From a virus, in the IMG/VR virus record IMGVR_UViG_3300034022_000278, positions 1-64,000 of that record: a stretch of 64,000 nucleotides of DNA; one strand, given 5' to 3'. This document shows, piece by piece, positions 6,391 through 47,972 of this stretch (within the stretch, counting starts at the first letter, position 1; the number at the start of each line of letters is the position of its first letter). The translations under genes and the position numbers were made by a program. The notes beneath the pieces were generated by a model. It saw nothing but the letters and a program-made list of their open reading frames with translations, did not search any database and was not told where the DNA came from.

Positions 6391-7025
6391 TAGCTAATTT
6401 TATCAAGTATAAAAGTAGCATTTGATAAATATATCTTAGCTGAATCAGTTGATGTTCCTATAAGATTTATAGTATCTCCTGCAACTAAGGAAATATCTGA
6501 AAGTAAAAATGAAGTACTAAATCTAAAATTTTGTAAAAATGTGGAATAAAATATAGAAGTGTTATTAACATAAGTATCAAGTACTACTCCATTTTTATAA
6601 GCATTATATGTTAAAGACCCTCCTGTAAATAAAGAACTAATTTCAAAAGTTATTTTTGCTGAATAACTGATTCTATATAAAGCTGTTGCTGTTCCTACGG
6701 GTACTGTGTAACTAGTCCCTGTAATATCAGTTGAAGTGGGAGAAGTACCTACACTTCCCATACCTAACCTTTCTGTAGTATAAAATACTTGCTCGCAAGG
6801 ACAAACTCCAGCAGGACCTTGTGGACCTGTTGCGCCCGTAGCACCTGTTGCTCCGTTAGTACCATTAGTACCGTTTGCTCCATTTAGGTTTGGCGTAATA
6901 TAAGTTGTCCCGTCTGTGTATAAATAAGTGAAAGTTCCGTTACCATTAGAGGTAACACTTACTATTCCTTTTCCGTCATTTCCACTTAATAAAGTAATTC
7001 CTTGACAATCTTTACATCCACACAT
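6390..7025 (-). CDS. Collagen-repeat fibre protein
   Basis: GANGTNGTNGATGATGATGPQGPAG Gly-X-Y run and an N-terminal CGCKDC. Confidence 0.7.
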   Translation of the reverse strand: MCGCKDCQGITLLSGNDGKGIVSVTSNGNGTFTYLYTDGTTYITPNLNGANGTNGTNGATGATGATGPQGPAGVCPCEQVFYTTERLGMGSVGTSPTSTDITGTSYTVPVGTATALYRISYSAKITFEISSLFTGGSLTYNAYKNGVVLDTYVNNTSIFYSTFLQNFRFSTSFLLSDISLVAGDTINLIGTSTDSAKIYLSNATFILDKIS

Positions 7026-7036
7026 AATTCTTTATA

Positions 7037-7864
7037 TTAACATCCACCGCAGCCACAGCCACAGTCGACAACCGTTTGACAATAAGTACTAGCTGCAGTA
7101 AGAATAGCTTCTGCAGTATCAAAATCTCCGCATGCAAATGCAGATTGTATTCCGTAGATAAAAATTTCCATTTGATCTACTTGGTCTTTTAATTTTCTTA
7201 CAGTGATAGAATCACATGCATCGATTAAAGCAACAACAAGTCTATCTTTGCAATTACATACATTGCATAAGAATAGTTCATATTGTGTATCATTAGTATA
7301 TTCTGTTGTTGATGTTAATACAGAATAAACTACTTGATATATACCGTCAGGTTGCGACCATGTTTGGTCTACCAAAGCGGTAAAAGGAACTGGAGTAGGA
7401 TTTCCTATTTGTCCAGTGTATAAGTTAATAGTAGGATTTTTAAAAATAAACTGCTCTAAAACAGATACTCCCATTATAACAGTAGATAATACTGACTGAG
7501 AGATATTAACTTGGTAAGTTCCTCCGTTGTTAGCACCTGTACCTGTTATTAATGCTACTATCTTAGTACCTGGAGTTACTCCAATACCTGTTAGATATTG
7601 CCCTACAACGAAAGTACCTGATAAATGTGATACATCTGTAAAAGTAGTTCCTGAGATTGTTCCTGTGCCAAAAGCATTAACAGCTGGAGTATAAGTCCAA
7701 GGGTAAACATTTACAGTTGCTGATACTACAGCAGTTGTATCTATATTAGGAGTTCCCCATCCTGTAGGATTAGTAGTTAGGTTATAGGCATTAGTCTCTT
7801 CATATAAATTAACTAAGTTACATTTATTTCCAAGGGTAAGCGATATTTTAGGTACTAATGCCAT
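7037..7864 (-). CDS. Cys-rich virion (tail hub/collar-like) protein
   Basis: NPTGWGTPN motif and a C-terminal CGCGGC. Downstream of the capsid module. Confidence 0.5.
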   Translation of the reverse strand: MALVPKISLTLGNKCNLVNLYEETNAYNLTTNPTGWGTPNIDTTAVVSATVNVYPWTYTPAVNAFGTGTISGTTFTDVSHLSGTFVVGQYLTGIGVTPGTKIVALITGTGANNGGTYQVNISQSVLSTVIMGVSVLEQFIFKNPTINLYTGQIGNPTPVPFTALVDQTWSQPDGIYQVVYSVLTSTTEYTNDTQYELFLCNVCNCKDRLVVALIDACDSITVRKLKDQVDQMEIFIYGIQSAFACGDFDTAEAILTAASTYCQTVVDCGCGCGGC

Positions 7865-7877
7865 GTTTTAAAGTTTA

Positions 7878-7886
7878 TCAAAGATA
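7878..7886 (-). promoter_or_regulatory. Bacteroidetes sigma70-type -7 element (TATCTTTG)
   Basis: Minus strand reads TTATTATCTTTGATAAACTTTAAAACATG, matching the TAnnTTTG consensus just upstream of the 7864 start. Confidence 0.5.
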
Positions 7887-7907
7887 ATAAAAATTTATGT
7901 ATTTAAA

Positions 7908-7943
7908 TAATTAGGTTGTACTAGAAGTAATACAACCTAATTA
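7908..7943 (-). terminator. Putative intrinsic terminator hairpin
   Basis: Inverted repeat ATAATTAGGTTGTA...TACAACCTAATTAT between genes. Confidence 0.5.
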
Positions 7944-7952
7944 TAAATTTAT

Positions 7953-9086
7953 TTAGTAGTATTCAATAGCAAACTGAAACTTAACATTAGAAAGTGTTCC
8001 ATAATTTGCAACACTAGATAATGGTTCTATTTGTAAATTTAAATAACCTGTTGCCCATACATCCGCTAATAAGCCTGTGTTAGGGTTAATAGCTTGCGAT
8101 ATATATTTATCGCCTATAATATTTACTACTGTACCTCCTTGAGAACTAATACCTGCGGGTAATATCATTTCTCCGTAACGAGTTCCTGGATCTCCTATAT
8201 TAGTAGATACATACGTACCTACAGGAGTACCTGGTATAATGCTGTTAGTGTCCTGGTATCCAGTTAAATTTCCAGATGAAATATATCCACTATTAACTTC
8301 TAATCCTGTAGTAATATCATAAAGTGTAGTTCCTATAGAACCTGCTAATGTAAATGTTGATTTATTTAGTAAGTTAGTATATACTTTTATTTTTGCAATA
8401 CCTGTAGCATACGGATTAAATTTAAAGTATACTCCAGAAGCATTACTAAATACTAAAGGTTTATTTCTCCCATCTTCAGATTCAGAATAAGCACCAAAAG
8501 TTGTACCTCTATTTATATAGTTTGTGCTATTATAAATAGAATAAATAGGATTAGTTGCTAGAGTTCCTCCAGATACTAAACTAGGAATAGTAATAATATC
8601 AGATAAATATTGTGTAGTTGCGGGCGCGCTCCATGTCCAAGCTCCAGGTAGAGGATTCTCTATACAGTAAAATGTATAAGGTTTGCCGTCTGGTGGAACT
8701 GTTGCAGGAACATTAATAGCGTAGTTATTAATTCTTCCTCCTATGTTAGAAGGATATAAAGTAATAATACCGTCAGAATTATTTACTATGATTGTTGTAC
8801 GGCCAGTTTTAGGTTGAGGTAATTTAGCTGCGTAATTAGTTACAGTGACAGTTCTAAATACATTTACTCCGTAATTTAAAACTGCAGTAGTACTTGCACT
8901 AGTATTATTTGCAATTAAATTGTCATAAACATCAGTAAAATCTGGCGTACCAGTACTTTCTAAAGGTACAACAATTCCGTATCTGTTTTTGTATGCTACA
9001 ACATTATTTTCTATACTTTTAAAGATATCTACTTCTAGACCGTCTTCATTTTGTGCATCTCTATTATATTTTTTTTCAATGTTCAT
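7953..9086 (-). CDS. Fibre/decoration protein
   Basis: 377 aa, T/S/N-rich beta protein directly after the capsid operon. Confidence 0.5.
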   Translation of the reverse strand: MNIEKKYNRDAQNEDGLEVDIFKSIENNVVAYKNRYGIVVPLESTGTPDFTDVYDNLIANNTSASTTAVLNYGVNVFRTVTVTNYAAKLPQPKTGRTTIIVNNSDGIITLYPSNIGGRINNYAINVPATVPPDGKPYTFYCIENPLPGAWTWSAPATTQYLSDIITIPSLVSGGTLATNPIYSIYNSTNYINRGTTFGAYSESEDGRNKPLVFSNASGVYFKFNPYATGIAKIKVYTNLLNKSTFTLAGSIGTTLYDITTGLEVNSGYISSGNLTGYQDTNSIIPGTPVGTYVSTNIGDPGTRYGEMILPAGISSQGGTVVNIIGDKYISQAINPNTGLLADVWATGYLNLQIEPLSSVANYGTLSNVKFQFAIEYY

Positions 9087-39172: not shown

Positions 39173-40246
39173 ATGGCAAAAATAAAATATTGGGATAAAC
39201 TCAAGGAAGAGATTGCCAGGGGTAAGTTAGGATTAAACACGGGTATTCCCTTTAGTGGATTTACTACTCTTAGTAAGCATATTAAGAATATTCAACAAGG
39301 TAGATATGATCTAATCTTTGCAGGTACTTCTATCGGTAAAACTGCATTTGTAAATAGTACCTATGTTTATGGTGCTATAGAATATCTTCAGAATAATCCT
39401 GGGTATGTGCACGATTTAGAGATTATCTACTATTCTTTAGAGATTCCTCCGCAAGATCAGATTGCTAAGCATATTGCTTCTTTAATCTGGAAGAACCATG
39501 GGATACTAACTTCTATTGATGAAATTAAATCTAAGGGTGACATGGAAATATCACCTCAAGTAGAGTTGTTAATAGGGGAATATGAGGTAAAAATGAATGA
39601 GATTCAGGATAAGTATCTATTTTATAGAAGTAATTTAAATCCTGATTTCTTATATAAAGACCTAATGGGGTATGCTGAAAAAAGAGGTACAGTAATACGT
39701 GATGACAATGATTTTATCATTGATTATGTTCCTAATAATCCTTCTTTAATTACCTTAATAATTATTGATCATATTGGTTTAGTAGATCTTGGTAAATACT
39801 CTAGTTTAAAAGAAGCTATTGACAAAATCTCTAAGACCTTAGTGTTCTTTAGGAATAAATTTAACTTTAGTCCAGTAGTAATATCTCAAATAAATAGGGG
39901 CTCTGAACAAATGGACAGAAGAGATGGAGATAGTTGGATGCCAATGCTCAGCGATATTAAAAATACAGGCAATGTAGCAGAGGATTCAAATACTATTATA
40001 GGTCTAGCAAGTCCTTTTTATTTAGGAGTAGAGAAATGCCTTGGATATGACATCGGTAAATTTAGGGATAGATATAGGTTAGCTAAGATTCTGAAAAATC
40101 GGGATGGACAAGCACAACTAAATATTAGCTTCCTGTTTATTGGCGAGTATGGGGGATATTATCAATTACCCAAAGCGGACGAATTAAACGGAAAGCCTGA
40201 AGAGCTTAAAAAGATTGATGAATATTATAAAAACAAGAACTTATGA
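39173..40246 (+). CDS. dnaB: DnaB-like replicative helicase
   Basis: AGTSIGKT, YSLE, IIIDH, ISQINR, SDIKNTGNVAEDS, KNRDG. Confidence 0.9.
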   Translation: MAKIKYWDKLKEEIARGKLGLNTGIPFSGFTTLSKHIKNIQQGRYDLIFAGTSIGKTAFVNSTYVYGAIEYLQNNPGYVHDLEIIYYSLEIPPQDQIAKHIASLIWKNHGILTSIDEIKSKGDMEISPQVELLIGEYEVKMNEIQDKYLFYRSNLNPDFLYKDLMGYAEKRGTVIRDDNDFIIDYVPNNPSLITLIIIDHIGLVDLGKYSSLKEAIDKISKTLVFFRNKFNFSPVVISQINRGSEQMDRRDGDSWMPMLSDIKNTGNVAEDSNTIIGLASPFYLGVEKCLGYDIGKFRDRYRLAKILKNRDGQAQLNISFLFIGEYGGYYQLPKADELNGKPEELKKIDEYYKNKNL

Positions 40247-40539
40247 TAAAAGACAAGTATATTTGGGTAAAAGCTAAGTTAACTGCTCATCCAGCTTTAC
40301 GAGATTCTAATGAGAGGTTGTATTATAACTATCTACAAGAGATAGGGTACGATATTAATAAGCCAACTAAAGAGTTTCTAAAAGATATGGAGAAAAGAGT
40401 TATACCTTATATGGATTCTTTTGGGAGAGCTTCTCGTAAAGTACAAGAGGAACATCCTCATCTAAGAGGCGCTACTTGGCAGAAAAGAAAGACAGTAAAA
40501 GAGGCAGAAATACGCCAAGAAATTAGGGATTTAACTTAA
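40243..40539 (+). CDS. Hypothetical protein
   Basis: 98 aa containing PALRDSNERL...RASRKVQEEHPHLRG. Confidence 0.6.
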   Translation: MIKDKYIWVKAKLTAHPALRDSNERLYYNYLQEIGYDINKPTKEFLKDMEKRVIPYMDSFGRASRKVQEEHPHLRGATWQKRKTVKEAEIRQEIRDLT

Positions 40540-40585
40540 AAATCCTTATCTTTAATAAAGTAAACAATCTAAAAATCAACAATTT

Positions 40586-41260
40586 ATGGGTCAACTCGTG
40601 TTTGTCGTTGGAAAAAGCGGCACAGGAAAATCTACCTCATTACGGAACCTAAATCCAGAGGAAACAATTATCATTAATACGGATCAAAAAGCGCTTCCGT
40701 TTAAACAATTTAACTTAAAGTACAATGAAGAGAATGACAATTATGTCAAGACTTCTGATGTGCAAGTAGTAATTGGTACCTTAAAGCGGGCACATGGTAA
40801 TAAAAAAATCAAAACTGTTATCATCGACACATGGAGTCGTATAATGACAGATGCAGTAATGAATCCTTCTTTTCGAGCAGAAAAAGGTTTTGATAAGTAT
40901 GGCAAATTTGCCGCTAATCAATATGACTTAATTAATATCATTAATGATAAATTAAGAGAAGATATCATTGTATATTTATTTGCTCATCCAGAAACTCACT
41001 ATGATGATGGTGGTTTCTCTACAGAAAGAATCGGTGTACAAGGTAAAATGCTAGAAAGATTCGTTCCTGAAAGCTTTAGTTCTATTGTGTTTTATGCAGA
41101 AATTGTAAAGACACCTGGGGCACCAAATCGTCACGTATTTAGAACCTTAAATTCTGGTACAGATACGTGCAAAACTCCTATTGAAATGTTTGAAGAAGCT
41201 CTAGTAGATAATGATCTAGTAGAGGTAAACGCAGTCATAAGAGAATATTATTCAATTTAA
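40586..41260 (+). CDS. AAA-type ATPase (Sak4/AAA_24-like)
   Basis: GKSGTGKS, VIIDT, FAH, CKTP..MFE. Confidence 0.8.
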   Translation: MGQLVFVVGKSGTGKSTSLRNLNPEETIIINTDQKALPFKQFNLKYNEENDNYVKTSDVQVVIGTLKRAHGNKKIKTVIIDTWSRIMTDAVMNPSFRAEKGFDKYGKFAANQYDLINIINDKLREDIIVYLFAHPETHYDDGGFSTERIGVQGKMLERFVPESFSSIVFYAEIVKTPGAPNRHVFRTLNSGTDTCKTPIEMFEEALVDNDLVEVNAVIREYYSI

Positions 41261-41285
41261 TAAATAACCAATAAAAAGTAAAACA

Positions 41286-41909
41286 ATGCAAGATTTAATT
41301 TGGGACGCAGTTCCGACACAGAGAAAGAAGAAAGAAGAGTCTTTCTCATTACCAACAATGACAATGTCTGCAATCGCTAAAGTAGGAGCAGGTAGAAAGT
41401 TTAGTTTTAATAAAGCAGCGCAAGGTTCTTTAGGAATCGAAGGGGGAGAAAGAGTTTCTTTCGGTTTTACAGCTGATGGTGCACAAATCTTTATTCGTAA
41501 AGTATTTGGAGAAATCGAAGGATTCGGTTTAACTCAATCATGTACTATTAGTGATAAGAAAACTTACGAGTTTATTGCTAAAAGATTAGGATTAAATACT
41601 GAAGTAGAGAATCATTTTGATGTTCTTCCTTTAGCAGGATATTCTGAATTAGTTCTTAGAACAGCAGTTGCTGAAGAAGTGATGGAGTTTAATACTGTAG
41701 ATTTAGGTGAAGTATCTGACGAAGAAGACATGGATGCTGATCTATCTACTATTCCTGGAACACCTGAAGGAGGAGCTCTTTACGAAATGGCAGACCACAC
41801 TATGGAAGTAGAAGATGCTTTAGTAGAAGAGACTATCGAAGATGAAGTCGATGAAATGCTTGAACTTGAAGAAGACGAAGAAGAGAACGACGAAGAAGGA
41901 GTTTGGTAA
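41286..41909 (+). CDS. Hypothetical protein with long acidic tail
   Basis: E/D-rich C-terminus ending in W. Confidence 0.65.
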   Translation: MQDLIWDAVPTQRKKKEESFSLPTMTMSAIAKVGAGRKFSFNKAAQGSLGIEGGERVSFGFTADGAQIFIRKVFGEIEGFGLTQSCTISDKKTYEFIAKRLGLNTEVENHFDVLPLAGYSELVLRTAVAEEVMEFNTVDLGEVSDEEDMDADLSTIPGTPEGGALYEMADHTMEVEDALVEETIEDEVDEMLELEEDEEENDEEGVW

Positions 41910-41957
41910 GAAGTAATTAAGTAAGTAAATAATTAACAATTTTAAATAATAAACAAT

Positions 41958-42554
41958 ATGATCAATTTAAATGACGCATCATTTGATGCAGCAGAAGGTA
42001 AAGCAATTTTCAATGGCGGAAATGCAGGTGTAGCAGAAAATGTTATGATGACAGTAGAGAAGAAAAAGGCTGATGATAAGCCTAATTCTCCTGATTACAA
42101 GTTATCATTTACCGATGCAAATGGTGGAACTTGTAACACAAGTTTTTGGTATGTAGAAAAAGCTACAGATTACTCTACAGTTGCTGAGCTAATCCAAAAG
42201 CAAGGTAAAGTTCTTAAGCATGTTATCCATGCAATTTATGGAGATGCTTACCAATTTCCTACAGGATTTAACAGCGCTAAAGAATTGTTAGACGGTTGTA
42301 TGCAACTTATCCGTACTGGATTAGGTACAGGTCTTAAATTCCGAGTATTTGCTAATTACGGTTCTACTCAAGGAATTAAGGATTATATTCAGCCAAGAAG
42401 TTGGGTGCCTTTCTTGGAGCCAATGTCTGTTGCTATCGCTGATACTCGCCTAAAAGCAGGTAATATCGATGCAATGGCACGTATTCAAAAAGATTCATTT
42501 GTTGCTAGCGGAACTGCTAATGCAAATGATATTGTCGCTGGAGACGAGTGGTGA
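41958..42554 (+). CDS. Putative single-stranded DNA-binding protein
   Basis: Located between the ATPase and primase, with an acidic aromatic C-terminus (GDEW). Confidence 0.6.
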   Translation: MINLNDASFDAAEGKAIFNGGNAGVAENVMMTVEKKKADDKPNSPDYKLSFTDANGGTCNTSFWYVEKATDYSTVAELIQKQGKVLKHVIHAIYGDAYQFPTGFNSAKELLDGCMQLIRTGLGTGLKFRVFANYGSTQGIKDYIQPRSWVPFLEPMSVAIADTRLKAGNIDAMARIQKDSFVASGTANANDIVAGDEW

Positions 42555-42575
42555 GAAAAAAATAATTAATTTTAC

Positions 42576-42608
42576 TGAGGGGGACACTAATGTCCTCCTC
42601 ATTTTTTT
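42576..42608 (+). terminator. Intrinsic terminator
   Basis: TGAGGGGGACA-ctaa-TGTCCTCCTCA plus TTTTTTT. Confidence 0.75.
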
Positions 42609-43613
42609 ATGAAAGAAATCAATCTAAATTCAATAGTATTTAATAGTCAGATTACGAGAGAGGACATTCTTAAGCATGTTACGCAAGAAGAAATCTATTC
42701 GTTCTATTTGGGAGAAGATATTACACATTTAGGAATATTTCACAGTCCTTTACGGGAAGATAATATTCCATCGTTTGCTTTGTATTTTCACAAGGTAAAT
42801 AGAAACATTCTAATGTTTTATGACTTTGCCACAAAAGATTGTGGTGACTTTGTAGTATTAGTTATGAGAATGTTTAATGTTGATTATCCTGAAGCTTTAA
42901 AGAAAATTACTTTTGATTTAGGACTATCCAATTTTAGTGTAGATCTTACTAAGCAAGTGATATCTTATACAAGAATTATTCATAAGGATAAAATTAAATT
43001 GGGAATTAAAACAAGACCCTGGAATTATAGAGATAAAGAATTTTGGAATTCTTTTGGTATTTGTAAAGCTACATTATTAAAATTTAATGTACATCCTATT
43101 AGTTATGTGTTTTATAACGACACTGCCGTTAAGGCCCACGAACAAGCCTATGCTTATGTGGAAATAAAAGATAATAGAGTAAGTTATAAAATCTATCAAC
43201 CAACAGAGATTAAAATTAAAAAATGGATTAATAATGCAGATTATTCTGTACACCAAGGTTATACACAATTGCCTAAATCTGGTGATATGTTAATTATTAC
43301 TAAGTCTTTAAAAGATGTTATGAGTATTCACGATTGTTTAGATATACCTGCTATAGGCCTACAATCTGAGAGTGTAATGATGAAAGATTCAGTAATGGAT
43401 GAATATAAATCTAGATTTAAAAAAGTAATTTGTCTATTTGACAATGATGAAGCAGGTAAGAAATTATCTAAGAGCTTCACAGAAAAGTATGATATTCCAT
43501 ATTTCTTTGTGCCTGAAATGCCTAAAGTTACAGACTTCAGTGATTTAGTTAGAGTAGTAGGTAAGCAAGGAGCTGTGGATATTGTAAAATTAAAAATTAA
43601 GAAGTATGAATAG
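42609..43613 (+). CDS. DNA primase (TOPRIM)
   Basis: SPLREDNIPSF, IITKSLKDVM, LFDNDEAG, VTDFSD. Confidence 0.85.
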   Translation: MKEINLNSIVFNSQITREDILKHVTQEEIYSFYLGEDITHLGIFHSPLREDNIPSFALYFHKVNRNILMFYDFATKDCGDFVVLVMRMFNVDYPEALKKITFDLGLSNFSVDLTKQVISYTRIIHKDKIKLGIKTRPWNYRDKEFWNSFGICKATLLKFNVHPISYVFYNDTAVKAHEQAYAYVEIKDNRVSYKIYQPTEIKIKKWINNADYSVHQGYTQLPKSGDMLIITKSLKDVMSIHDCLDIPAIGLQSESVMMKDSVMDEYKSRFKKVICLFDNDEAGKKLSKSFTEKYDIPYFFVPEMPKVTDFSDLVRVVGKQGAVDIVKLKIKKYE

Positions 43614-43660
43614 AGCGGACACATTAAGTAAAACTAGTAAAGATTTAATGATGAAAGAGC
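43606..43660 (+). pseudogene. Remnant original 5' end of the vWA-metallopeptidase gene
   Basis: Encodes MNRADTLSKTSKDLMMKE, homologous to MNIQTKADSLAQTSKHLMLSE at 44492. Its ATG overlaps the primase stop. Confidence 0.75.
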
Positions 43661-44469
43661 AACGATTTAAATTTGTCGTACTTTCTATCTAAATAATAAT
43701 TAGCATCATTGTAAAGGTAATCAGATATTTTAATTAAATTTTGTTTACCTTGATATGTTAAAACATGTAATTGAGTAATCTTACAATTTTTAGGATTATA
43801 TAATTTAGTTTTATTAAGGTAAAGTTCTTTTATTAAAATACTTTGCACTTTACTTAAAAAATCAAAAGGACCTAACATACTAAAAAGATAATCTTTGTTT
43901 ATATTATTAGTATAAATACAACCGTCTCCATCAAAATACCCTCTTATAAAATGATGGTATAAATTTTCGGAAATAGTTGTAGGAAAAGTTAGCGTAGTGC
44001 CTTTATTGGGGTAAAGTCCATGAGGCAAAAGATCTTGTATAAGGTTAGGAGCAGTAATAGAAAGTTTCCACTGTTGCTGTCGATTTCCTAATTTTTTAAC
44101 AGAAAGAATAGGTCCTGTATAATTTAACACATCTTTAAATTTTACAAGAATTGGTTTATCTTTTTCTTGTAAACTTATAGATAATACTTTTTTAGTTACA
44201 TTACCATCTGCATATAACAGCCCTAAAAAATAAGCTTTTTCCTCAGTATTAATTATACTAAAAAAATCTTGATTGTGGGAATACTTAGTAGAAGATTGGG
44301 ATAATGTTCTTATTTGAGTATTAGATTTTTTAATAATTGAATAAATAGTTTGAGGAGTACAATTACATAATTTTGCTATTACATAACAAGATTTGCCCGA
44401 AATATAGGAATCTATAATTTCTAATTTTGTCATAGGTAATTTGTACCCTTTATTCTGTTTTATAACCAT
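43645..44469 (-). mobile_element. Free-standing LAGLIDADG homing endonuclease, antisense to the operon
   Basis: KAYFLGLLYADGN and HHFIRGYFDGDG motifs, N-terminal HTH, and TATATTTG promoter element at 44474-44481. Confidence 0.85.
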
Positions 44470-44491
44470 AGTACAAATATAATATTATAAT

Positions 44492-46792
44492 ATGAATATA
44501 CAAACCAAAGCTGATAGTTTAGCACAAACTTCCAAGCATCTTATGCTTTCCGAGCCCTATTACGGGTTCTTTCTCATTTTATTAAATAAATTATGGTACA
44601 CAAAAGTACCCACGGCTGGCGTTGGTAAACAAGGAATAAATTATCAGCTAGTCATTAATCCTACTTTTTGGGAAGAGTTATCGGAAGACCATAGATTAGG
44701 CCTTCTAAAACATGAGCTCAATTAGGGCTCCTTATACAGTAATGTATATGTAAAATGTCTTAAATTGACGGGGACCCCCTAAAGTTTTATCTACTAAGCA
44801 TGCACCGTGAGGTAGTATGTGGCTGACTTAATTACTCAGGTATAGTAAAAAAGATAAAAATGTCCGAATGGGAAATCCGCAGCCAAATTTCTTGGTTATA
44901 TGATTTATTTTTGGTATATTGCAGTATAAATACTTACATATATGAAAACAGAAATAGAACAAAAAGTAATTGATTATTATATTACTGATAAGTTATCAGG
45001 TAAAAAGATTGCGAGTTTATTACAAATAAATGTAAAAACAGTTTTTGCAATTTTAAAAAGAAATAATGTAAAATCAAGGACTTTGTCTGAATCAACAATG
45101 AAATACACTTGTCAAGATGATTTTTTTAATGTTATAAACACAGAAAAGAAAGCATATTGGCTAGGAGTACTATTTGCTGATGGTAATATTACAAAAAAAG
45201 CAAGTAAATCGGGACAAATTATTTTTTCATCAAAAGATAAAGAATGGGTAGAACTATTTTTATTAGATGTTGGCTCAAATAATTCCCCCAATTGTGAATA
45301 TCATAAATTATTTAAAAAATATATATGGAAAGCTCAGATAACTTCTGCGCAAATGTATGATGATTTAAATAACTTAGGATGTACACCAGCTAAAACTAAA
45401 ACAATTAGAGTGCCTATATTAAATGATGCATTAATGCACCACTTTATTAGAGGATATTTTGATGGTGATGGTACAGTTGGTGTTTATAAAAATCTAAAAA
45501 ATAATGATTGGAAAATTATAAAGTCAGGTTTTTGTTCGGGCTCACAAGAATTTATTATTGACGTATTAAGTATATTACCAGTAAAAAATAAAACTATTAA
45601 ACATAGTAAAGAATGTTATATTACACAACATTCCTTGCAAGACACTTTTAATCTATTTGGTTACATGTATAAAGATTGTACTACATGTTTAGAAAGAAAG
45701 AGACAAGTTTTTATTAATTACTTAGACACATATAAACCAAGAAAGAGGTTCAACGACTACAATAGACCATCCTAATAAGGATGAAGGTATAGTCTGATCT
45801 CATGTGAAAGCATGAGTTAACAAAAATGTTTGCATATTGCTTTTGGTCACTTAAGTGCTGTATTTAAATTTAGTGATAGAAAATTAGCTAATATAGCTAT
45901 GGATATGGAGATTAATCAATATATTATTCCTGAATGGTTACCTAAAGGAGGCATTGATATTGACAAATATCCAGAATTAAATTTAGACAGAAAAGCAGGT
46001 TGTAGATATTACTATGACAAGCTTAAGCAAGCTAAGGATAAAAAAGATCAAACTGGTACTAGTGGCAGCGATGCATTTGATAGACTGTGCGATCAAATGG
46101 ACGGTGACGGTGAAGGCCTACCTGACCATAGCACATGGGACGAGTTCGAAGATTTATCTGAGGCAGAACAAAAGCTAATAGAAAAGCAAACGCAAAGACT
46201 CTTAGGCACTGCTAAAGAACAGACTTTAAAGAAGCAAGGTAATGTTCCTAATGAGATGAATGATCTAATTCAATTAGATGTAATATTACCCCCAAAATTT
46301 GATTGGAAGGGATATATTAGAAGGTTTACTGGAATTAGCACAAAGGTGTTTACTAAGAAGATACGCAGAAAAGAGAATAAAAGATACGAAGGTAATCCTG
46401 GTCTTAAAATTAAAATGAGACAAAAGATGCTATTAGCTATCGATACCTCTGGATCTGTTAGTACTCAAGAGCTTGGAGAATTTATGAATGAAATATATCA
46501 TATTTACAAAGCAGGTGTAGAAATTACTATTGTTCAATGTGATACTGAAATTCACAGTATTGAAGATTACAAAGGCAAGTTTGAATTAAAAATATCTGGT
46601 AGAGGTGGGACAGAATTTGACCCCGTATTAGATTATTTTGAAAAAAATACACAATTTACTAGTTTAATATATTTCACTGATGGTGAATGTTATACTAATA
46701 AAAAGCCTTCAAAGAAAGTATTATGGGTATTGTCTGAACAATCAACTATGAATGAAGCCCTTCCTGGGAAAGTAATAAAATTAGAACTTTAA
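44492..46792 (+). CDS. Metallopeptidase-vWA protein (DUF2201-like), spliced: exons 44492-44718 and 45829-46792, 396 aa
   Basis: Splicing restores KHELLHIAFGH (HEXXH). Also ANIAMDMEINQ, MIDAS AIDTSGS, GRGGTEF, FTDG. Confidence 0.85.
44719..45828 (+). mobile_element. Group I intron containing a LAGLIDADG ORF
   Basis: P1 GAGCU/GGCUC with U.G at 44718. Q AATCCGCAGC at 44874, R GTTCAACGACTA at 45748, S GAAGGTATAGTC at 45783. P9 CTCATG/CATGAG and terminal G at 45828. Confidence 0.9.
44942..45775 (+). CDS. Intron-encoded LAGLIDADG homing endonuclease
   Basis: KAYWLGVLFADGN and HHFIRGYFDGDG. Looped out by TTTCTTGGTT(44888)/AACCAAGAAA(45735). Confidence 0.9.
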   Translation: MKTEIEQKVIDYYITDKLSGKKIASLLQINVKTVFAILKRNNVKSRTLSESTMKYTCQDDFFNVINTEKKAYWLGVLFADGNITKKASKSGQIIFSSKDKEWVELFLLDVGSNNSPNCEYHKLFKKYIWKAQITSAQMYDDLNNLGCTPAKTKTIRVPILNDALMHHFIRGYFDGDGTVGVYKNLKNNDWKIIKSGFCSGSQEFIIDVLSILPVKNKTIKHSKECYITQHSLQDTFNLFGYMYKDCTTCLERKRQVFINYLDTYKPRKRFNDYNRPS

Positions 46793-46802
46793 AAAATTAA
46801 AT

Positions 46803-47972
46803 ATGAGTCAAGTAAAATTAAATGTAGATGAGTTAAAATCATTTATCAAGCATATTGTGCATAATAATCAGGTTATCCAAACTCAAGGTAAAGTGCCTGT
46901 TACTATTAACGTAGTGGGTGATGCTGGTCTAGGAAAAACTTCTGCAATATTGCAGTCGGGTTCTGAATTAGGCCTAGAAGTAGTTAAATTAAATCTATCA
47001 CAATTAGAAGAATTAGGTGATTTAATTGGTTTTCCAGTTAAAGAATATAAAGTTAAGAATGCAGAAGGTAAAACTTTATGGATTACTGAGCAAGAGATTG
47101 CTACTGCAGGTGAGAAAGGCTATAGAGTTGTAGATAAAAGAATGACACATGCCGCACCAGAATGGATTCAGGGTAAAGGTGAGGGTGGATTCTTATTATT
47201 AGATGATTTCTCAAGAGCTGACCATAGATTTCAGCAAGCTGTAATGGAAATATGTGACCGTCAAGAGTATATTTCTTGGAAATTGCCTAAGAACTGGCAC
47301 GTTATCCTTTCTTCTAATCCTGACAATGGTGATTACAATGTAACTTCATTGGATGTTGCGCAGCAAACTAGATTTATTTCTGTTGAGCTAAAGTATGATG
47401 TTAATGTATGGGCTAAATGGGCAGAAAATGTAGGAATAGATGGTAGATGTATCAACTTTATGTTGATGAATCCTGAATTAGTAACTCAAAGAGTTAATCC
47501 AAGATCTGTAACTACATTCTTTAACTCTATTAGTTCTATCCAAAAGTTTGATGATGAGTTACCAATGATTCAAATGATTGGTGAAGGTTCCGTTGGAACA
47601 GACTTTAGTTCTATGTTTACTATGTTTATCAATAATAAGTTAGATAAAATTATAAGCCCTGAAGATATCTTAACAAAAGATGCAGGTTATGTATTTGGCT
47701 CTTTAAAAGATATGATTGGTGAAGGTGATGAGTTTAGAGCAGATATCTCAAGTGTAGTAGCTACTAGAATTATTAATTATTCTATAACTAAAGCTGCAAC
47801 CAGCAGCATTGCCGACCCTATAATTCAAAGATTAGTGGCTATAACTACCGATTGTGAGTCTTTCACAGACGATTTGAAGTATTATATCATTAAGGAGCTG
47901 TTAAACGGTAATAAGCCTAAATTTAGTAAAATAATGTTAAACGCAAAGGTCGCTAATATGGCCATAAAATAA
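46803..47972 (+). CDS. MoxR-like AAA+ ATPase
   Basis: GDAGLGKT, LLLDDFSR, SSNP, DVAQQTRF, NPRS. Adjacent to the vWA gene. Confidence 0.85.
   Translation: MSQVKLNVDELKSFIKHIVHNNQVIQTQGKVPVTINVVGDAGLGKTSAILQSGSELGLEVVKLNLSQLEELGDLIGFPVKEYKVKNAEGKTLWITEQEIATAGEKGYRVVDKRMTHAAPEWIQGKGEGGFLLLDDFSRADHRFQQAVMEICDRQEYISWKLPKNWHVILSSNPDNGDYNVTSLDVAQQTRFISVELKYDVNVWAKWAENVGIDGRCINFMLMNPELVTQRVNPRSVTTFFNSISSIQKFDDELPMIQMIGEGSVGTDFSSMFTMFINNKLDKIISPEDILTKDAGYVFGSLKDMIGEGDEFRADISSVVATRIINYSITKAATSSIADPIIQRLVAITTDCESFTDDLKYYIIKELLNGNKPKFSKIMLNAKVANMAIK

Follow-up and report, generated by a model that had tools for sequence, protein, structure and literature searches.

How can a homing endonuclease gene lie within the reading frame of a conserved phage gene and leave that gene usable? 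An intron, an intein or an intergenic gap is generally regarded as necessary for such genes, which would otherwise kill their target gene. The question is raised by the first 64,000 nucleotides (nt) of the virus record IMGVR_UViG_3300034022_000278 (the window), which belong to a lake-water phage and in which an open reading frame (ORF) for a LAGLIDADG enzyme lies antisense within the 5' part of a gene for a DUF2201/vWA (zincin-like) protein. There is no intergenic room at this target, because the upstream DNA primase gene overlaps the vWA start codon. We consider it likely that 895 nt at codon 18/19 of the vWA gene constitute a homing cassette, which comprises the antisense LAGLIDADG gene, 20 substitute codons and, between the two, a fixed divergent start region of 22 nt; cleavage, carrier immunity and start signals are what we infer for it. 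Compared to a near-identical empty allele the insertion is clean, and the displaced native gene start survives as a stub. From its new ATG the vWA gene reads on without splicing. Diverged phages contain the module as well, and near-identical genomes differ in whether they have it.

The empty allele and the edges of the insert

Scanning IMG/VR with the primase returned 64 loci, including a 4.8-kb contig, L001, which is ~99% identical to the window over 40250-44715 and 96-100% identical in each 100-nt step from 40269 to 44663. By blastn, L001 13-4404 corresponds to window 39272-43660 and L001 4401-4564 to window 44552-44715; the alignment breaks after 43660 and resumes at 44552, with GAGC common to both edges. 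The window therefore carries an 895-nt insertion, located at 43661-44555 or equally at 43657-44551, and the joint 43656->44552 in contigs of two sequencing runs (X5 and X6) marks the same edges. An insertion at codon ~18-19 had been claimed in an earlier reading of the window made from its letters alone (the original prediction), and the blastn comparison with L001 places it there. To the right of the insert, only 1 mismatch in 164 nt separates the two sequences. In L001, as in L063, the primase stop and ATG-MNRADTLSKTSKDLMMKEPYYG are contiguous, as was foreseen for relatives free of the endonuclease gene, and in L001 MNRADTLSKTSKDLMMKEPYYGFFLILLNKLWYTKV... continues uninterrupted through HELLHIAFGH. 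Named GenBank phages yield no empty-site comparison, because the sole megablast match of 42609-46792 to them was 47 nt in Staphylococcus phage Machias, tblastn of exon 1 gave no match and tblastn of exon 2 found only relatives below 30% identity. Further to the left, at ~40269, the identity between the window and L001 drops from ~99% to 61-85% (window 39272-40268) inside a helicase-like gene (39173-40246), a sharp mosaic boundary.

The insert replaces the beginning of the vWA gene. An ATG at 43606 overlaps the last codons and stop of the primase ORF (42609-43613, plus strand; Pfam Toprim_2, E 1e-5; PHROG 12622 DNA primase, E 7e-56) and opens the dead stub (43606-43660, plus strand), in which the first 18 native codons of the DUF2201/vWA gene and 1 further nt are left. 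Since the stub is identical at 55/55 nt to L001 4350-4404, where the same codons begin the intact gene, its likeness to a native start is not due to chance. The stub reading frame continues into antisense endonuclease sequence and ends at 43692, giving a 28-codon ORF (43606-43692) of MNRADTLSKTSKDLMMKE followed by 10 unrelated residues, QRFKFVVLSI. On the minus strand, the free-standing endonuclease gene (43645-44469) encodes 274 amino acids with an N-terminal helix-turn-helix (HTH) and borrows its last five codons and stop from the stub, the antisense of which reads (L)LFHH + stop, exactly as proposed before. A 22-nt spacer (44470-44491) separates its start codon from the divergent ATG of the substitute N-terminal segment (44492-44551, plus strand; 20 codons, MNIQTKADSLAQTSKHLMLS), which differs from L001 up to 44551 and is in frame with the remainder of the gene.

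All positions of the original prediction hold, namely the overlap of the ATG 43606 with the primase gene, the break after GAGC at 43660, the frame end at 43692, the second start at 44492 and the endonuclease stop at 43645. Its view that the 44492 start continues into the real gene stands insofar as this start is in frame with exon 1, but the gene is interrupted again after 44718 by an insert of 1110 nt. The ORF 44492-44725 reads MNIQTKADSLAQTSKHLMLSEPYYGFF..., and its working exon 1 (44492-44718, plus strand) matches Pfam DUF2201_N over residues 7-76 with an E value of 0.0024, which falls under the curated cut-off. Exon 1 is contiguous in L001 with exon 2, which lies in the window at 45829-46792 on the plus strand (Pfam DUF2201, E 7.8e-18; DUF2201_N, E 5e-5), and the DUF2201_N match resumes there, past the second interruption. 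The protein encoded at 45830-46792 and its GenBank relatives are labelled 'HNH endonuclease' in PHROG 1314 and in many RefSeq records; Pfam detects no HNH domain in it, and the label may stem from members interrupted by endonuclease genes. At the right edge of the cassette, GAGCCC-TATTAC-GGGTTC (44552-44569) forms an imperfect inverted repeat, which was caught by a terminator-like scan.

Two further carriers have cassette-free relatives at 85-93% identity, L149 with L107 and L155 with L132. The insert in L149 comprises ~892 nt with 8 nt common to its edges, while in L155 the likeness to L132 resumes at the same place and 21 nt of the native start are gone. The three comparisons (L001, L107 and L132) agree on the right edge, which coincides with the Glu codon of EPYYG, 60 nt downstream of the new ATG. 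Left junctions, by contrast, vary and are of five types: the junction follows GAGC in the window, GAGCC(TTA) in L149, TTGAAA in L142-L148 and L249, TTAAA in L248, and codon 9 in L150-L155 and L252. Presence and absence of the endonuclease gene at one fixed site among close relatives is thus documented by L001, by the pairs L149/L107 and L155/L132, and by the joints in X5 and X6.

Recurrence of the module and its conserved parts

With the endonuclease protein as query, 16 loci were obtained from IMG/VR, 14 of them at 71-74% identity and two (L156 and L157) at 28%. All of the 14 have the endonuclease gene divergent from a vWA start across a 22-nt spacer, a longer vWA N-terminus of the type MN..NK..SLA..SK.LML[S/A/T/V/L]EPYYG, and an in-frame native-type stub behind the endonuclease 3' end, which overlaps the last endonuclease codons in antisense. 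The stub peptides are MDKVQSLSKASKDLMLK, MDKQQSLSKTGKELMLK, MKNREDSLAKTSKDLMLKEP or the 9-codon MDKVQSLSK/MDRQQSLSK. In these carriers the primase is only ~30% identical and 2-3 kb off, and the upstream neighbour is another small gene. An exact-pattern scan for the spacer recovered the same 14 contigs. A degenerate DNA pattern for the first 12 residues of the enzyme, free of any context, hit five metagenome contigs of the Joint Genome Institute (JGI), some of which may duplicate IMG/VR contigs; 5/5 lie beside a vWA start and 3/3 with a readable left side have the stub, the other two running off the contig. A native-type stub therefore stands behind the endonuclease gene in 17/17 contigs with a readable left side (14 from IMG/VR and 3 from JGI), and the unit of endonuclease gene, spacer and substitute N-terminal codons recurs as originally proposed.

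Carriers reach down to lower identities. An alignment-based IMG/VR scan for intermediate relatives returned nine known contigs again, all other 71 loci being at most 42% identical, and further endonuclease relatives were found at 54-67% identity (P0009-P0026), of which the 58% one corresponds to L248. In this most distant carrier the enzyme has a native C-terminus, ...KFFSV, the spacer matches at 18/22 with 8 extra nt, the stub reads MNNKTDELAKASKDLML and the substitute start ...KTDQLAKASKDLMLREPFYG. The two N-terminal copies of L248 encode nearly the same peptide and differ at most synonymous positions.

The 274-residue product matches Pfam LAGLIDADG_3 in two stretches (E 9.2e-9), HTH_28 and the PHROG 4645 endonuclease (E 1.8e-58); its nearest solved relative by sequence is PDB 2dch (E 1.8e-6). 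One chain holds two LAGLIDADG-type motifs with acidic residues, LGLLYADG and FIRGYFDGDG, and both are invariant or nearly so in 20 relatives. The native C-terminus of the family is ...RK[YH]DKFxSI, of which the window enzyme keeps KFKS before the stub-derived LLFHH + stop. Substitution patterns indicate that the gene is under purifying selection: 10/10 ORFs compared are intact, and the pairwise ratios of nonsynonymous to synonymous divergence (dN/dS) are 0.04-0.27 at synonymous divergence (dS) up to 1.3.

The spacer is the centre of a near-invariant block of ~43 nt, which extends from the sixth endonuclease codon to ATGAAT. Despite an endonuclease dS of 0.6-1.2, 21-22 of the 22 spacer nt are identical in 13/14 IMG/VR loci (19/22 in L149). 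This points to a strong constraint on the block, most simply because it would hold the start signals of both genes. A TAnnTTTG motif of the Bacteroidota type occurs 4 nt before the endonuclease ATG; as it precedes 7/54 long ORFs against a background of 3.6%, it is too weak as evidence.

The substitute codons form a class of their own. They are in frame, led by an ATG and retain the conserved residues of the family in all 15 distinct alleles. The segment of the window belongs to the class MN..NK..SLA..SK.LML[non-K]E, which is linked to the endonuclease gene, and is identical to L005 at 53/60 nt. For a comparison of vWA 5' alleles, 168 hits were reduced to 126 distinct alleles with at least 250 nt upstream, after 3 with too little upstream sequence were dropped and duplicates were merged. 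The residue before Glu is not Lys in 15/15 distinct cassette alleles, while it is Lys in 96/111 cassette-free alleles (Fisher P 1.5e-11). At the nucleotide level, native alleles read ATG-(A/T)TG-AAA-GAG-CCC and carriers ATG-CTT-NNN-GAG-CCC.

L005 itself has a substitute-type vWA start (MSNMNTQNK...LMLSE) directly after the upstream gene and no endonuclease gene. A substitute-type start in an endonuclease-free relative, which would speak against the original prediction, occurs in only this one contig (L005/L065) among 111 distinct endonuclease-free alleles. L005 may be a carrier that later lost the endonuclease gene, or the source lineage of the substitute start. A donor resembling L005 would first differ from the window at 44584, which would limit the co-converted right flank to at most ~32 nt. 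Between primase and vWA, L005 holds four small genes (7004-8341); its vWA gene starts MSNMNTQNKADSLARTSKNLMLSE, which is of the cassette type, and the bases preceding the second vWA ATG resemble the end of the 22-nt spacer.

Proposed movement of the cassette and competing explanations

We propose that the enzyme would cut the native sequence around ...ATG-(A/T)TG-AAA-GAG-CCC-TAT-TAC..., codons 15-21, and that the break would be repaired from a co-infecting genome that bears the cassette. The right end of the break would be homologous to the gene body of the carrier, while the left end could use the stub and the upstream gene of the carrier as homology arm or be joined through a few shared bases. 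In this way the endonuclease gene would be copied along with the spacer and the substitute codons. The resulting carrier would hold two half-sites: in one the native left half runs into endonuclease sequence, in the other a re-spelled left half precedes the native right half. Its immunity would follow from the split of the site and from the re-spelling of the left half, in which another codon always takes the place of the Lys codon. LAGLIDADG enzymes recognise sites of ~20 bp and leave 4-nt 3' overhangs; on this basis neither half-site is expected to be cut. Deletion through recombination of the two N-terminal copies with each other would be impeded by their low identity, and the ~43-nt block is expected to supply the start signals of both genes.

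The competing explanation that survives best, which we nevertheless regard as unlikely, is the fossil of one old accident: the endonuclease gene and the start of a neighbour's gene would have entered once by illegitimate recombination, followed by vertical inheritance, ordinary phage recombination and many losses. The N-terminus would then be incidental flank, and the enzyme would no longer drive anything. In agreement with this, the window endonuclease gene diverges about like the host gene (73-75% nt identity compared to 65-74% for the remainder of exon 1), the left junctions are heterogeneous and L005 has the substitute-type N-terminus without the endonuclease gene. Phylogeny speaks for mobility but leaves room for the fossil as well. 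A quick maximum-likelihood tree of exon 2 was built from 123 distinct rows, limited to those with one high-scoring segment pair across residues 30-250. At least 5 changes are required to account for its 12 carrier rows, and each is imposed by branches with a support of at least 95 in the Shimodaira-Hasegawa-like approximate likelihood ratio test (SH-aLRT), but this count cannot separate gains from losses, and the gene is mosaic.

An old accident accounts poorly, however, for a genome that is 99% identical and lacks the cassette, and for a stub without a single difference from the live gene start of that genome. At dS ~1 a dead stub of such age would be expected to show decay, but ATG, frame and native residues are preserved in all 17 readable stubs. 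Their peptides are still of the native kind, and 40-59 of 51-62 nt agree with sampled native alleles, which fits poorly with an old dead sequence at a dS close to 1. Intact endonuclease ORFs under purifying selection are likewise unexpected for an enzyme that drives nothing. A further sign of movement comes from the carriers L143 and L144, whose endonuclease genes are 99% and whose spacers are 100% identical, compared to 90% for the substitute codons, 82% for the remainder of exon 1, 81% for the stub zone and 63% for the left flank. Since the endonuclease genes are far more alike than their flanks, this tract is much younger than its surroundings.

Empty and carrier alleles also seem to coexist in samples. 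Logan contigs of the lake run X5 and the estuary run X6 contain the joint 43656->44552, which skips 895 nt and in which four letters fit either side. In X5, the left contig of the joint agrees with the window at every position over 43000-43656, and parts of the endonuclease interior are covered by separate contigs, again without differences. Allele frequencies cannot be derived from contigs, and absence cannot be concluded for stretches that no contig covers in X4-X6.

Several findings weigh against a homing cassette of the proposed kind. The insertion is not always precise, because the left junction differs in five ways among carriers and one type lacks 21 nt of the target. The N-terminal segment is not always carried whole with the endonuclease gene, since the substitute codons of L143 and L144 are only 90% identical. 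A residue other than Lys before Glu also occurs in 15/111 cassette-free alleles, and the two enzymes at 28% identity (L156 and L157) have no vWA gene nearby. The nearest endonuclease relative is 75% identical and no donor was found. In the empty joints of X5 and X6 the shorter contig side measures 27 nt, which is under the 30-nt caution line. A sigma-70 promoter scan was not above shuffled sequences (13 sites compared to 8.4 +/- 2.9) and neither supports nor excludes start signals.

We regard it as very improbable that the 895 nt represent an intein-like element or a self-splicing intron, with the stub as exon 1 and an irrelevant second N-terminus. LAGLIDADG genes do usually live in introns or inteins, and the same gene has a probable intron 165 nt downstream. 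However, no Rfam family matched at E<=1 over 43000-47000, and no catalogued ribozyme was found there in either the cassette or the downstream insert. The frame is restored by the new ATG, and the substitute codons are ATG-led and in frame with the conserved residues kept in every distinct allele. The short stubs of L150-L155 lack codons 10-17, so splicing could not rebuild the protein, which bears out the original prediction that the gene is restored without splicing. An intein would have to be in frame and translated with the host protein, and it is excluded because the endonuclease ORF lies on the opposite strand. Likewise rejected, and close to inconceivable, is a chimeric or mis-joined metagenomic contig: the window does come from an uncultured 88-kb virus record, but the identical endonuclease protein is found on 4 contigs, three runs contain all sampled words of the stretch, though these may be the source sample, and the same architecture was assembled independently in 19 other contigs.

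The proposed homing cassette is not the only insert in the vWA gene. A second, separate insert of 1110 nt (44719-45828, plus strand) interrupts the HExxH codons; L001 lacks it, and joints in X5 and X6 skip it too. It contains a LAGLIDADG ORF (44942-45775) that is 42% identical to the first endonuclease, gave no Rfam match at E<=1 and is probably an intron. A version of ~290 nt without ORF occupies this site in L063/L066. Within the insert, window 44728-44774 shows a 91.5% match to an RNA polymerase beta gene that is in three pieces in Staphylococcus phage Machias. Just to the right of the insert, window 45826-46027 is 92-96% identical to L001, compared to ~99% left of the insert; the reduced identity could represent the co-conversion tract of the second insert. 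Further LAGLIDADG ORFs interrupt the vWA gene at codon 25/26 of exon 2 (L144, L150, L151, L008, L251) and at codon 260/261 (L142), and the gene therefore has at least four endonuclease-occupied sites across relatives. Upstream, the primase/vWA junction is a hot spot for extra genes, since other small ORFs of 63-131 amino acids are inserted there in relatives (L008, L009, L015, L017, L010, L018). In L019 and L021 the vWA match directly adjoins the primase match, lies in a different frame and has its first ATG only at residue ~28, which may reflect a non-ATG start or a frameshift.

Relation to known mobile elements and implications

As far as the excerpts of the literature considered here go, the closest known analogue is the fungal mitochondrial mobile ORF (mORF) that carries a foreign gene C-terminus, of which the window cassette is the mirror image, acting at the 5' end, antisense, with its own start region and in a phage. 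The Allomyces atp6 case is cited in the study of these elements (PMC3630166). Fungal mORFs insert in atp6, atp9, cox2 and nad3 together with a foreign C-terminal copy, which displaces the native C-terminus (PMC3630166, in excerpts). To call the strategy unprecedented would therefore be too strong, since these elements do the same at gene 3' ends. In both systems an endonuclease ORF enters a coding sequence with a diverged foreign gene end, the native end is displaced and unused, and no splicing is involved. In the fungal hybrids close relatives cluster with the native copy, and the inserted one falls elsewhere (PMC3630166, in excerpts); likewise, the window stub is fully identical to its close relative L001, while the inserted codons match L005 at 53/60 nt and belong to the cassette-linked class. 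In contrast to the fungal elements, which replace the 3' end and whose ORF lies downstream in the same orientation and often in frame, the window cassette replaces the 5' end and its ORF is antisense and upstream of the replaced N-terminus. It must consequently supply a start codon and start signals, for which the near-invariant 43-nt block is the candidate, and its host is a phage instead of an organelle.

The Seg and Mob endonucleases of T-even phages are free-standing, support intronless homing and cut away from their insertion site; their genes are preferentially passed on together with adjacent DNA, and differences in the sequence of the site protect the genome that carries them (PMC2988022, in excerpts). 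Like these, the window endonuclease gene lies outside any intron or intein, given the Rfam result and its antisense orientation. Unlike Seg and Mob, which belong to the GIY-YIG or HNH type, lie between genes and cut at a distance, it is a LAGLIDADG gene inside a reading frame with a sharp common right edge. Insertion of mobE in Aeh1 nrdA and of mobA in T4 gene 60 split the gene into two polypeptides that reassemble (PMC2988022, in excerpts). These cases share with ours a free-standing endonuclease gene that interrupts a conserved phage coding sequence which stays functional; the vWA gene, however, would not be split, as its first 18 codons are discarded and replaced. With LAGLIDADG enzymes borne by introns and inteins, the window enzyme has in common the family, the two motifs and a fixed site in the region of a conserved protein-coding motif, but there is no ribozyme or intein around it, and the cost to the host gene is avoided by DNA replacement and not by splicing. 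A full-text literature search, outside of which most subscription journals lie, gave no description of a phage endonuclease cassette with a substitute N-terminus.

More tentatively, and leaning slightly to the side of doubt, we suggest an autonomous homing element for gene-start replacement, built from the LAGLIDADG gene, a fixed, bidirectional and possibly leaderless start region and a re-spelled gene start. In this extended form the single recoded Lys codon would be the immunity determinant, the element would currently be spreading in lake phages and would have co-evolved with one target codon down to 58% enzyme identity, and it would represent a general, undescribed class of phage mobile elements that swap the ends of conserved genes. 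Where the target offers no gap, the cassette would thus create one, giving up 18 codons and bringing in replacements along with new start signals. The locus comes with built-in controls, namely an empty allele at 99% identity, ~15 distinct carrier alleles and five junction types, and with a predicted target of ~25 bp in which one codon is always recoded, so that cleavage, immunity and spread are directly testable. The cassette would also account for unusual classes of N-terminal alleles and for short orphan ORFs met in annotated phage genomes, and the enzyme family may serve as a source of new long-site nucleases whose target can be read from genomes.

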